This document shows positions 31,982-39,745 of a stretch of 64,000 nucleotides of DNA, one piece after another. The stretch comes from a virus: positions 32,001 to 96,000 of the IMG/VR virus record IMGVR_UViG_3300005673_000003; one strand, 5' to 3'. The notes beneath the pieces were generated by a model that did no database searches, was not told the origin of the DNA, and saw only the letters and a list, made by a program, of their open reading frames with translations. Position 1 is the stretch's first letter, and each line of letters begins with the position of its first letter. A program made the position numbers and the translations under genes.

Positions 31982-33356
31982 GTGAAGTACCCGACGCTCA
32001 TTGCTACGCAATAGAGCGCGGGCTTCTTTGTTCATCGGGACTTGCCTCGGAGAGGGTAGACTTGCGCCTGCCTCCCTTTGGTCTTACAGTCCCTCCCAAA
32101 GCAGAAGCCCCACTTCCTGAGGCCAAAATCCGCAAGCCTTCATTTCTGATATTGATCGCCGCATTGATGTCCCTATCATGCCGTTCTTGGCAGTGAGGAC
32201 AGACAAACGATCGGACTGAGAGATCCATTTTCTCTAGCGTCAACAGTGTGTTTGAGCACAGATGGGAAGACGGGAAGAATCGCCCAATCTCCAGATACAC
32301 CTTGCCTTCAAACTCCGCCTTGTATTTGAGCATGGTACAGAACTGTCCCCAACCGACATCGCTTATTGCCCTGGCTAGGTTGTGGTTCTTGACCATGTTC
32401 TTAACCGCTAGATCTTCCACCACAATTACTTGGTTTTCGTTGACTATCTTGCGGGATAGCTTGTGATGAAAGTCTTCTCTTACTCGTGCAATCTTGCTAT
32501 GCACTTTGGCAACTTTTAACCGCGCCTTGTTGCGATTCTTGCTGCCTTTTTCCCGTCTAGACAGCTTACGCTGCTTCCGTTTTAGGTTGCGTTCATGCTT
32601 TTTGAGGTGGCGAGGGTTTGCGAACTTTGAGCCGTCAGAAGTAATAGCAAAGTCTGTCAATCCCAAATCGATCCCAATTGCCTTTCCCTCGCTGGAAGAT
32701 TCAGGCTTTTCTATGCCGTCATCGACCAGTAGAGAAGCGAAGTATTTCCCGTCTGGGTTCCTGGACACCGTGACAGTTTTTATAGTCCCCTCAATAGGTC
32801 TGTGAATCTTGGCTGTAACTGTTCCCAGCAAACCAGGAAACTTGATTGCAGACTCAGAAATTACTTTGACGTTTTGAGGAAACTGAACCGACTGTCTATA
32901 GTGTTTCGATTTGAAGTTGGGATACTTTGCTCTGCCCTCAAAGAAGTTTTGGAACGCTTGAGATAGATTCAAAACTGATTGCTGCAAGCATTGAGAATAA
33001 CACTCTTTCAGCCATTCATGCTCCGCTTTCAGGATGGGAATCTGTTTCTTCATATTGAAAGCAGAGATTCCCTTGCCTGTCGTCTTGTACGTTTCCGTCA
33101 TGACAGACAAGCAATGATTCCACAGCCATCGAGTACAACCAAAATGCTTGGCTAGCGTGATGGACTGCTCATCGGTGGGATAAATTCTGACCTTGACTGC
33201 TTTCAACATGTCTCTATATTAGCATAAACCCAGCATTGCGATAAAGGCTTATCTGTCACGATTCCTAGATAGTTTGTTCCTTCGCTTCGCTCAGTCACGC
33301 GGCTCTCATCCCGACGCTGACCGTTCCGGTACAGCGCGGGGCTTCCCGCCTAGTAG
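31982..33356 (-). mobile_element. Non-autonomous IS200/IS605-family element (tnpB only)
   Basis: Left-end hairpin GAAGCCCCGCGCTGTACC...CAGCGTCGGG follows TTAG. Right-end hairpin GAAGCCCGCGCTCTATTGCGTAGCAATGAGCGTCGGG ends in TTCAC. No tnpA. Confidence 0.85.
32004..33209 (-). CDS. tnpB: RNA-guided endonuclease TnpB
   Basis: HTH (KVRIYPT), RuvC-I IGIDLG, RuvC-II VEDL, RuvC-III HDRDINAAINI. Confidence 0.96.
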   Translation of the reverse strand: MLKAVKVRIYPTDEQSITLAKHFGCTRWLWNHCLSVMTETYKTTGKGISAFNMKKQIPILKAEHEWLKECYSQCLQQSVLNLSQAFQNFFEGRAKYPNFKSKHYRQSVQFPQNVKVISESAIKFPGLLGTVTAKIHRPIEGTIKTVTVSRNPDGKYFASLLVDDGIEKPESSSEGKAIGIDLGLTDFAITSDGSKFANPRHLKKHERNLKRKQRKLSRREKGSKNRNKARLKVAKVHSKIARVREDFHHKLSRKIVNENQVIVVEDLAVKNMVKNHNLARAISDVGWGQFCTMLKYKAEFEGKVYLEIGRFFPSSHLCSNTLLTLEKMDLSVRSFVCPHCQERHDRDINAAINIRNEGLRILASGSGASALGGTVRPKGGRRKSTLSEASPDEQRSPRSIA

Positions 33357-34183: not shown

Positions 34184-34357
34184 CTATTGAGCTTCTGGCG
34201 GTTGCTCCGGCGGTTGCTCTGATTCTGATTTTTGAGCATTTTGGGAATATCCCAGTAGTTGCCGCTGCTGTTCCATGAGCTGCCTTGCTGCCGTCTGGTC
34301 TTGAGCGGAGCTATTAAAGCGGATAGAAACGGTTCTGCCTCTACGAGATACTTTCAT
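34184..34357 (-). CDS. Small protein (57 aa, MKVSRRGRTVSIRFNSS...)
   Basis: Read by hand; begins at the ATGA next to the IsrB element end. Confidence 0.6.
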   Translation of the reverse strand: MKVSRRGRTVSIRFNSSAQDQTAARQLMEQQRQLLGYSQNAQKSESEQPPEQPPEAQ

Positions 34358-35803
34358 CAAAAATTCTCCGGGACACCCCCATCCTCGCGCAGCAGGTGGG
34401 GGAGGGATAGGAGCGTCATTAAGCGGGGTTCGATGCCCCGTTTAATGACAAGTATTGTGGGCGAGTGACCAGTAACCCCGTTGCGCGGTGGAGTAACTGC
34501 ACTTTAGAAGCCGTAAACTGCCCGATACGCTTCCAATTGAAATCAGACACAGAGACTTGCCGTTCTGTATCTCCACTCACCCACCCGACACTAACCCTGC
34601 CTGCCATTTCCGCTCGTACTAAATCACCCTTCCTGAATCCATGTCGGGTGGTGGTGCCGCCATATTTGCGGCGGACTCCACCCTTTGCCGGAACCATCAG
34701 GTGCAATTGTCTGCGGGAAATGGGCGGGCGGCGAATCACCACAAAGGGGGCGGTTGTGACTCGCACGTCGCCAACCCAATGATGACCACGGGTATTGGCA
34801 GTGTGAAATGATGTATAGCGAACAAACTGACTACAAGCCAGGGCAATCCCGTCAACAGCATGAGTTTCAGGCTTGGCATCACCCTTGCTAGTTTTTTGCT
34901 TTTCCAGATTCAGGTGATTTCTGAGACTGGCAGTTTCCCACCCGTAGAGAGTGGAGGCTGGAGCCAAAGTTGCTAATTGCTCTAGCATCCATTTTTGCCC
35001 CACCATGACCGCACTGAATCCTTTCCCGGAACGGGCGGCTTTGCGGCCAGATGTGAGGTCTACATCGGCCTTAACGTACTCAAAAACAATTTGGCTAATC
35101 GGGAAAACACGACACAATTCTTGTACCGTGCGATATTCCAATTGTCGATTGCTTTTGATGCTGGGCGGGACACCCTTCTGCCGACGATTACTAAATCGCT
35201 TTTGCCGATGAGCGCGTTGATTAAAGGGAAGTTTGCGGTTAATCCGCCTGCCTCTACGTCCACGTCGCATCAGTTTTTGATTGGCTTTGTGTTCCTTTAC
35301 TGTGTCAAATGGCAACAGCAGATGTGCCATGAACAGAGTCGCTTTGGCTGATTGCACAGCAATCCCGCTGTAATGCTTGCCTGGGTCAATGCCAACCACA
35401 ATGGGCTGAGTTTCCTTACCAGAAGGTTCGGCAATCAATTGGACGCAATAGATACCTATGTCATTAAAAAACTCCTTGGCTTTGCCTGTTTTGACCCAAC
35501 GTTTTGCTCTGCTTGCCTTCGTTGGCATCAGGACTTGTCCATCGGGTGCTAGTACGGGAACTCGAACTTGTTGGTTTTCCATGAGAGAGATAATCCCTTA
35601 CGGTTGTTTGCCCCTTTGACCACGCAAATCACAAATGTCTTGCCCTTACGCCCGACTGAGTAAACAGTCTTACAACTAGCCCGGATTCGGGGGGTGTCCG
35701 GTAGTGTATGTCGTGATTGCGCTCTTTGGCCTATTCAACGCTTACGGTGTGGGTCTTACTCCCCTCACTCCCCCACCTCGCCTAAGCAGGTGGGGTTGTT
35801 GAA
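34358..35803 (-). mobile_element. IS200/IS605-family OMEGA element carrying IsrB and omegaRNA
   Basis: Begins TTCAACAACCCCACCT...AGGTGGGG. Ends CCCCACCTGCTGCGCGAGGATGGGG...GGAGAATTTTG, followed by ATGA. Confidence 0.85.
34419..35582 (-). CDS. isrB: IsrB (IscB-family RRXRR protein lacking HNH; RNA-guided nickase)
   Basis: PLMP-like VLMPT, RuvC-I GIDPG, bridge helix RRGRR, RuvC-II E (VFEYV), RuvC-III HAVDG; no CxxC/HNH insert. Confidence 0.88.
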
Positions 35804-35825
35804 ACTTTTCTCCTGTTACGATTAC
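35590..35825 (-). ncRNA. Putative omegaRNA (5' guide from flank plus scaffold)
   Basis: About 220 nt of structured noncoding sequence between the element end and the isrB start, the canonical omegaRNA position. Boundaries are approximate. Confidence 0.75.
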
Positions 35826-36357
35826 GATTGCGTTTACCGCCCTCCGTAGCCCGATTGTTCATCCAGCGAATGAATTGCTGAGGATTTCCGTAGGTCAGCC
35901 GATTGCGGCCATTTCCAGCCAGCCTCCAACCGCCTTTGGTGGGATACAGATCAACTCGAAGACCTTTGTAATTGATGATGAGGTGCGCTCCGTTATTTTT
36001 GGAGACGTAGCCGATACTAGCGGCTTTCAAAGCGTTTACGAATACCTCATTCCTGGATTCCCTATTGAGCTTCACATCGGCATCATGGGCACGCCAGTAC
36101 TCCGAGCTACCAGGCTCCAGAAGCTCTATTGGGGGAGAAGTATTGGGGAATAAAATTTCGTTGACCGAAATCTCATCCTTCATGCTCTGGTAGGCTTCTA
36201 GCGCTTTATCCTTATTGGTGTAAGCCAGCTCATCGAGCGGTAGAGTATGCCCTGGAATGTGAATAGTGATGAGCCAGAACCCATCCTCCGGTTGGAGCAA
36301 GATCACCCGATAGCGGCCTGCAGCACGCTCCCTGACTGGCTGAATTGCAACTACCAT
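35782..36357 (-). CDS. Hypothetical protein; last 6 residues supplied by the IsrB element
   Basis: GGAG RBS; ends KV-STTPPA* inside the IS end. Confidence 0.7.
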   Translation of the reverse strand: MVVAIQPVRERAAGRYRVILLQPEDGFWLITIHIPGHTLPLDELAYTNKDKALEAYQSMKDEISVNEILFPNTSPPIELLEPGSSEYWRAHDADVKLNRESRNEVFVNALKAASIGYVSKNNGAHLIINYKGLRVDLYPTKGGWRLAGNGRNRLTYGNPQQFIRWMNNRATEGGKRNRNRNRRKVSTTPPA

Positions 36358-39698: not shown

Positions 39699-39745
39699 AT
39701 TGTAATTAAAAAGATTGATAAATGTCAACATCTATCAATCTTTTT
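39699..39745 (-). promoter_or_regulatory. Conserved sigma70 promoter, copy 2, with an inverted repeat around -35
   Basis: TTGACA-18-TACAAT; AAAAAGATTGATA...TATCAATCTTTTT inverted repeat flanks the -35 box. Confidence 0.8.

Follow-up and report, generated by a model that had tools for sequence, protein, structure and literature searches.

We analysed a stretch of 64,000 nucleotides (nt) of viral DNA, hereafter the window, which covers positions 32001-96000 of the IMG/VR record IMGVR_UViG_3300005673_000003, a record of 148,728 bp with direct terminal repeats. On the minus strand of the window, between an open reading frame (ORF) of 191 amino acids (aa) and a downstream ORF of 57 aa, lies a 1,446-bp element that carries the gene isrB together with an omegaRNA region. 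An earlier reading of the letters alone (the sequence-only reading) had proposed that this is an IsrB transposon which landed in an ATGA stop/start overlap and repaired both genes. What that reading saw in the sequence is confirmed, and its interpretation is borne out in part. The evidence supports an assignment of 34358-35803 as an IsrB/omegaRNA transposon of the IS200/IS605 type. We put the probability at roughly three in four that this insertion sequence (IS) entered at an ATGA overlap and belongs to a family whose members sit on start codons.

The IsrB protein matches the Pfam domain RRXRR alone (E 4e-44), with no HNH domain, and the family phrog_32617 (E 3e-165). Residues 5-370 align with DtIsrB of Desulfovirgula thermocuniculi (PDB 8DMB, E 4e-51) in a full-length alignment at about 40% identity. 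This alignment is continuous, showing that the HNH insertion is absent, and IscB structures match only the N-terminal 120-180 residues or so. The PLMP-type N-terminal motif is kept (VLMPT in the window, PLMPT in DtIsrB, with LMPT common to both), as are the residues of the split RuvC domain, found in GIDPG (D), IVFEYV (E) and ETHAVDG (H and D). The motif KRIGQF is likewise kept; according to the alignment, its Arg and Gln correspond to Arg323 and Gln326 of the DtIsrB TI domain, which read G3 and A4 of the target-adjacent motif (TAM; PMC9581776). DtIsrB is a non-target-strand nickase with an NTGA/TTGA TAM (PMC9581776), and the window IsrB is predicted to be an RNA-guided nickase of the same strand. 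By its sequence, the IsrB of this phage is a well-preserved member of a known family.

The omegaRNA of DtIsrB has 284 nt, compared with about 220 nt for the window scaffold up to the ORF start. When this 221-nt region was aligned with 22 relatives, RNAalifold gave a consensus of 49 base pairs, 41 of which are accompanied by compensatory changes. No Rfam family matched in 30-40 kb even at E 1, and the HEARO model (RF02033) misses the window omegaRNA; hence, the omegaRNA assignment rests on position and covariation. Weinberg et al. are said to have noted in 2009 that HEARO elements integrate next to ATGA or GTGA. Together, the RRXRR domain without HNH, the match to 8DMB, the covarying omegaRNA and the ATGA flank with the conserved TAM-reading Arg and Gln bear out the identification as an IsrB transposon.

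Both ends of the element carry the same G/C hairpin in direct orientation (repeat 34373-34401 and 35767-35795), as in IS200/IS605, and terminal inverted repeats are absent. A search of the whole phage record for a Y1 (HUH) TnpA gave no PF01797 match, so that the element is non-autonomous. According to Meers et al. (bioRxiv 10.1101/2023.03.14.532601), most IscB/IsrB elements are likewise non-autonomous. The element is present as a single copy in the phage record, and two more JGI assemblies of this phage contain it without a single base difference. A 15-nt stretch near the far end (34366-34380, GGGGGTGTCCCGGAG) is 87% complementary to an internal hairpin of the omegaRNA (35690-35704, CTACCGGACACCCCC); our guess is that this complementarity arises simply because the two places have G-rich and C-rich hairpin arms in common. 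The features of the locus are collected in Table 1.

Table 1. Features of the IsrB locus, in window coordinates
Feature	Position	Strand	Basis or remark
Whole mobile element, 1,446 bp, non-autonomous, IS200/IS605-type IsrB-omegaRNA	34358..35803	minus	Family alignment and the empty site of a relative
isrB, 387 aa, intact	34419..35582	minus	Pfam, 8DMB and PHROG matches
omegaRNA scaffold, from conserved TTCAAC to the IsrB start	35583..35803	minus	RNAalifold covariation
First subterminal hairpin (CCCCACCT ... AGGTGGGG)	35771..35795	minus	Stems 35795-35788 and 35778-35771; family helix columns 9-13/42-46
Second subterminal hairpin (CCCCCACCT ... AGGATGGGGG), TAM-proximal end	34376..34402	minus	Kept in the ESFC-1 and Jaaginema copies
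GGAG	34366..34369	minus	Candidate element-borne Shine-Dalgarno sequence or CTCC pairing partner; 8 nt before the downstream ATG
ATGA	34354..34357	minus	TAM; also start of the 57-aa ORF; stop of the upstream gene when the element is removed
Putative guide flank (about 16-23 nt)	35804..35826	minus	Position relative to the scaffold; holds the native AGGAG (35814-35810)
Upstream ORF, 191 aa	35782..36357	minus	Native part stops at 35804; last six codons and stop are element-derived
Downstream ORF, 57 aa (ORFan)	34184..34357	minus	Predicted by the JGI pipeline
Promoter-like site TTGACA-18-TACAAT	39699..39728	minus	Sole strong one upstream on this strand
Polyvalent protein, 1,070 aa		minus	LPD29, two WGR domains and a methyltransferase (Pfam)

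Relatives were sought in one genome per prokaryotic species, which yielded 57 loci, all cyanobacterial and with protein identities of at most 66%; one further related locus was taken from a viral contig. Element ends were called by a hairpin-anchored rule. At the omegaRNA end, similarity begins at a conserved TTCA(A/C), and the preceding base varies; in the window this end corresponds to 35803. At the other end, all 35 alignable relatives stop directly before ATGA, with positions +1 to +4 reading ATGA in every case; by analogy, the window boundary lies at 34358/34357 (in junctions, a slash marks the element boundary). Of the four copies that are closest at the DNA level, three belong to the filamentous cyanobacterium ESFC-1 and the fourth to Jaaginema; most are degraded. 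The stretch ...GGAGTTTTTT(G/C)/ATGAAA is common to them, and divergence sets in only past it. A natural empty site was found in Anabaena sp. CCY 0017 (L063), which equals the Nodularia locus L025 minus its element, base for base. The junction of this empty site reads ...TTAATAGATAC/ATGAGCCGC... and is itself an ATGA stop/start overlap; the comparison revealed no target-site duplication, and a single ATGA is retained. Another pair of orthologous loci (L055/L066) fits the boundary rule, but is diverged near the junction. Thus, the family ends and the L025/L063 empty site show that the sequence-only reading had placed the element correctly at 34358-35803. By the same comparison, we infer that the window element was inserted without a target-site duplication.

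Several further observations were made on the relatives. Two ESFC-1 loci (L055:1281-2057 and L056:1278-1925) are internally deleted derivatives, 777 and 648 bp long, from this same element lineage that keep both ends; they still lie exactly on start codons, those of a PfkB kinase and of an unknown ORF of at least 479 aa. A distant IsrB subgroup (L021, L023, L029, L030, L033, L037-L041) stops before TTGAA, not ATGA. In Scytonema sp. HK-05, the isrB of L035 has an internal stop at about codon 128, and L036, with the same ends, has one in-frame stop. An overlap between the IsrB stop codon and the host ATG was considered and dropped, the extensions seen at L008 and L025 being tblastn alignments that read through an earlier stop.

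Removal of 34358-35803 joins ...AACAGGAGAAAAGT (up to 35804) with ATGAAAGTA (from 34357), the whole junction being ...AGGAGAAAAGT/ATGAAAGTA. Checked on the minus strand, the rebuilt site reads ...AAC AGG AGA AAA GT/A TGA AAG...: the upstream ORF ends in ...NRRKV-TGA, the ATG of the 57-codon ORF overlaps this TGA as ATGA, and AGGAG lies 6 nt before the ATG. The rebuilt junction is thus plausibly an ATGA stop/start overlap preceded by AGGAG, as had been read from the letters before. In the element-free window, just 5 of 530 ATGA sites serve both as the end of an ORF of 100 or more codons and as the start of one of 57 or more; an ATGA picked at random would resemble the rebuilt junction about 1% of the time. 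The other four overlaps are ordinary gene pairs, indicating that the phage uses ATGA overlaps. A Shine-Dalgarno (SD) core is found at -16 to -5 of 26 of the 46 long ORFs of the window, compared with a background of 10%.

With the element in place, the upstream ORF reads GTT TCA ACA ACC CCA CCT GCT TAG, so that the Val is kept and the residues STTPPA are gained. The new TAG (35784-35782) sits in the loop of the first hairpin, where the sequence-only reading had seen it. At an overlap, only one entry frame can lose its stop; a stop scan was run in three frames of 35 elements. In 24 of the 35, the overlap frame is closed at codon 6-7 by a stop in the first hairpin's loop, and the median stop distances of the three frames are 7, 4 and 18 codons. 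The pattern of a built-in stop is thus real, and it is suggestive. However, since the stops fall in A-rich hairpin loops, the built-in stop may be a by-product.

The far end of the element reads GGAGAATTTTTG/ATG, and the downstream ATG now lies 1.45 kb from its native AGGAG. The GGAG that had been taken for a new SD sequence is present, but the spacer was given as 7 nt, one T having been dropped; it measures 8 nt. The idea of a built-in ribosome-binding site as a feature of the family did not survive the comparison. Only 7 of 35 elements (the window, L006, L016, L035/36 and L055/56) have an SD core within their last 16 nt, and two copies outside this set (L057 and L058) bear the same GGAG tail. 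Terminal GGAG is restricted to some lineages, and copies ending in it fall at scattered places in the IsrB tree; in most elements, the end consists of a small GGGTTT/AAACCC hairpin and a T-run. Among the cyanobacterial target genes, 4 of 25 have an SD sequence.

For the family as a whole, empty sites were rebuilt for 34 independent cyanobacterial insertions, and the 693 other ATGAs in the same flanks served as background. The flanking ATG opens at least 80 codons in 24 of the 34 insertions, compared with 15% of the background (p 5e-13), and is the first start codon after an in-frame stop in 20 of the 34, compared with 3.9% (p 5e-20). Pfam identifies true N-termini among these: profile position 1-2 is reached at residue 2-14 in LarC, GalK, DapB, thioredoxin, CobA and a response regulator, and insertion sites likewise mark the start of ABC-ATPase, nitrogenase-type, PfkB, cyclophilin and M48 proteins. 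Ten of 35 family sites are not at ORFs. Stop/start overlaps were found in the window, in L025 (ATGA, confirmed by the empty site) and in L047 (TAATG, with the TAA split by the insertion). As such overlaps are a minority, the rule of the family is the start codon, and ATGA overlaps are a subset; the proposed preference for ATGA overlaps was not seen in the survey. The start-codon habit is clear, statistically strong and largely anticipated. In the literature searched, no paper was found that quantifies start-codon occupancy.

The NTGA TAM, the external guide, the co-orientation with upstream genes and the entry of IsrB into a phage at ATGA have all been published. IsrB and its omegaRNA were characterised with NTGA or NTG TAMs, including the enzymes of Crocosphaera and Dolichospermum (Hirano et al. 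2022, PMC9581776). CwIsrB (Crocosphaera watsonii) and DsIsrB (Dolichospermum), with a published TAM of NTG (PMC9581776), belong to the same cyanobacterial IsrB clade as the window protein. Three Crocosphaera loci (L004, L005 and L007) encode proteins that are 64-66% identical to the window IsrB, and share with it the omegaRNA architecture, the end hairpins and the /ATGA flank. In contrast to these, the window copy is phage-borne and groups with L002 on a separate branch, and its tail carries GGAG where theirs reads ...CATATTTTACG.

According to 10.1101/2023.03.14.532601, IscB/IsrB depend on transcription that enters from outside to make their guide, and the elements show a bias towards the orientation of the upstream gene. 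The IscB IS of Geobacillus stearothermophilus, for which 'restorative homing' is described there, is likewise non-autonomous, with the guide outside the omegaRNA-proximal end (RE) and the TAM at the other end. Unlike the window IsrB, the Geobacillus elements encode an HNH-bearing IscB with another TAM. In the passages of that report that were consulted by keyword, no mention of an exact placement on start codons was found.

Movement of an IsrB element into a phage has been observed: an element of Microcystis (host orf2067) jumped into gp49 of phage Mic1 at an ATGA (PMC11237433). Mic1, Ma-LMM01 and MaMV resemble the window in having cyanobacterial IsrB elements at ATGA in cyanophage genomes. 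The Mic1 event, however, hit an internal ATGA and inactivated the gene (PMC11237433), whereas the elements of the window and of Ma-LMM01 lie at gene junctions. In Ma-LMM01, a cultured phage, the IsrB (gp171) is 64% identical to that of the window, and the element ends ...CCCATTTTTTCG/ATG precisely at the annotated start of gp170. Upstream of the resident omegaRNA of this Microcystis phage (NC_008562; L067:1177-1290) there are three tandem partial omegaRNA 5' ends, GTC(G/A)CTAACCC.... These copies begin 1-2 nt past the gp172 stop and may be insertion or excision scars, or stacked ends.

How the window element may have arrived can be outlined as follows. A host TnpA, presumably acting in trans, would have moved it into the cyanophage, where it would have landed immediately 5' of the ATGA in which the TGA of a 184-codon gene overlapped the ATG of the 57-codon gene. 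ATGA, besides serving as a start codon, would be the recognition motif shared by the transposition machinery and the IsrB nickase. Because recognised motif and start codon coincide, elements of the family would come to lie directly before ORFs and on the same strand; they would survive there because no ORF is broken. In the window, the upstream gene would have lost its stop and be closed seven codons later by the TAG in the hairpin loop, with six residues added. The downstream ATG, separated from its native AGGAG, stands 8 nt past the GGAG at the end of the element, which may rescue its translation.

The flank at 35804-35826 lies where IscB/IsrB guides lie, in agreement with the guide predicted before, and by analogy it would be transcribed as the guide of the omegaRNA. 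On this strand, the promoter-like site at 39699-39728 is the likely source of read-through across the guide and the omegaRNA; the next one (34152-34124) follows the 57-aa ORF. In an omegaRNA made by read-through from the upstream gene cluster, the flank ...TAACAGGAGAAAAGT would form the 5' guide. IsrB guided by this RNA could nick the rebuilt empty junction beside ATGA, which would favour re-copying of the element.

Several observations speak against an insertion at an ATGA overlap as outlined here. Probes for the empty allele (22 nt of the junction and 24 nt of the 57-aa gene) were unmatched in viral and metagenome contigs, from which the phage's own records were possibly excluded, and the three records that carry the locus are identical, all with the element. 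Of the 49 consensus pairs, the window omegaRNA retains 40, a lower number than in most relatives, part of this shortfall being a one-base bulge that shifts the alignment. The weak point is the 57-aa ORF, which is not convincingly coding and may not be a gene. Its product has no homologue among 5.8 billion proteins and no Pfam or PHROG match; its codon score of 0.059 per codon is about 1.5 standard deviations below the in-frame mean of 0.177 (standard deviation 0.078). If it is not a gene, the element would have hit an ATGA whose TGA ends the 191-aa gene, where a transcription unit comes to its 3' end, and the rescued start would be accidental, as the promoter-like site directly after the ORF and the ten family sites away from ORFs would also allow. 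We regard this as unlikely. Frame 0 is the best of the three, about 2.3 standard deviations above the off-frame mean of -0.34, the rebuilt site has AGGAG 6 nt upstream, four other gene pairs in the window use ATGA overlaps, and JGI gene calling predicted the ORF. A last point against the ATGA boundary is that the window end, TTTTTG/ATGA, contains TTGA 3 nt upstream. The boundary could then lie 3 nt further in, with TTGA as TAM, TTGATGAAAG as host sequence and a junction AAA GTT TGA TG, that is, a one-base TGATG overlap. L055, L057 and L058 share the reading TTTTTTG ATGA with the window, DtIsrB prefers TTGA at 60 C (PMC9581776), and the distant subgroup ends before TTGAA. Nevertheless, this boundary is very improbable: L056 (TTC/ATGA), L014, L008 and L017 (TCG/ATGA) and L031 (CCC/ATGA) have no TTGA, and the exact empty site L063 breaks directly before ATGA. 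As the window end itself contains TTGA, it is only through relatives such as L056 and L014 that the TTGA boundary is ruled out.

Other alternatives concern the cause of the pattern and the role of the element ends. It is nearly an even bet that the excess of start codons reflects survivorship, insertion occurring at any ATGA and intragenic copies being purged, in which case the end features would not be adaptations. The TAM is no longer than 4 nt, 10 of 35 sites lie away from ORFs, the jump observed in Mic1 broke a gene at an internal ATGA (PMC11237433), and the stops in A-rich loops (UAAA/UGAA) are possibly structural. Yet survivorship predicts many intergenic ATGAs unrelated to ORFs, and 20 of the 34 are first start codons; moreover, the codon 6-7 stop is kept in the sole overlap-relevant frame, even though the loop sequences differ (UAAAAG, UGAAAG, UUCUAG, CUUAGG). 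Survivorship concerns the cause, and the pattern holds regardless. More doubtful is the idea that the ATG-A motif of this IsrB clade is adaptive because it places the element on start codons, where it would gain the strand of a transcribed gene and with it transcription of the external guide, an intact downstream ORF and, at tightly packed junctions, a quick upstream stop from the first hairpin loop. Some lineages, including the phage-borne one, would have added an SD sequence that keeps SD-dependent genes translated, and in phages the guide would also allow homing during co-infection. As for the terminal GGAG, there is a substantial chance, somewhat short of even, that it is a structure of the transposon end and not a ribosome-binding site, forming the 3' half of a stem with the CTCC of CTCCTATCCCTCCCC that encloses the end hairpin, in single-stranded DNA or RNA. 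In RNA folds of L057, L016 and L006, the partner of GGAG is a conserved CUCC that lies immediately 5' of the end hairpin; the pairings join (A)CUCCU or GUUCCU to AGGAGU or AGGAAU and include one apparent compensatory change (C/G to U/A). Consistent with such a role are the small hairpin that most relatives have there instead, the scatter of GGAG ends on the IsrB tree and the GGAG ends of L035 and L036 at sites without an ORF. On the other hand, the fold of the window copy itself shows no pairing between GGAG and CUCC, and the spacing between GGAG and ATG is 5-8 nt, the SD range, in every GGAG-bearing copy. Both roles are compatible, and these folds allow that GGAG may be structural, an SD sequence, or both.

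The genes next to the IsrB element are all on the minus strand. The upstream 191-aa ORF has a codon score of 0.173, and its product has no informative Pfam domain; an exhaustive HMMER search returned weak homologues only, covering residues 85-150 or thereabouts. For both flanking genes, the search of 5.8 billion proteins gave only the query itself, and a pattern search of viral contigs gave no relatives; in the absence of usable relatives, a syntenic comparison was impossible. Two more small ORFs lie 3' of the 57-aa ORF, followed by a TnpB gene (33209..32004, minus strand). This gene, which shares the strand of the IsrB element and lies some 1 kb downstream, encodes 401 aa with HTH_OrfB_IS605, OrfB_IS605 and Cas12f1-like TNB domains and is the sole TnpB gene in the phage. 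Thus, two different OMEGA-type elements lie within 4 kb.

The window element is in itself ordinary. What is of use here is the quantitative pattern: the 4-nt target motif of this IsrB clade of cyanobacteria and cyanophages serves at the same time as a start codon, and some 60-70% of the surviving insertions lie precisely at a host gene's first ATG, among them those of housekeeping genes such as dapB, galK, trx, cobA and a nif gene. Siting on start codons offers an explanation of two known puzzles of IscB/IsrB elements, namely how a guide that is external to the element gets transcribed and how such elements persist in gene-dense genomes. For annotation, it means that genes downstream of these elements retain their true start, and that genes upstream of them may bear short element-derived tails.

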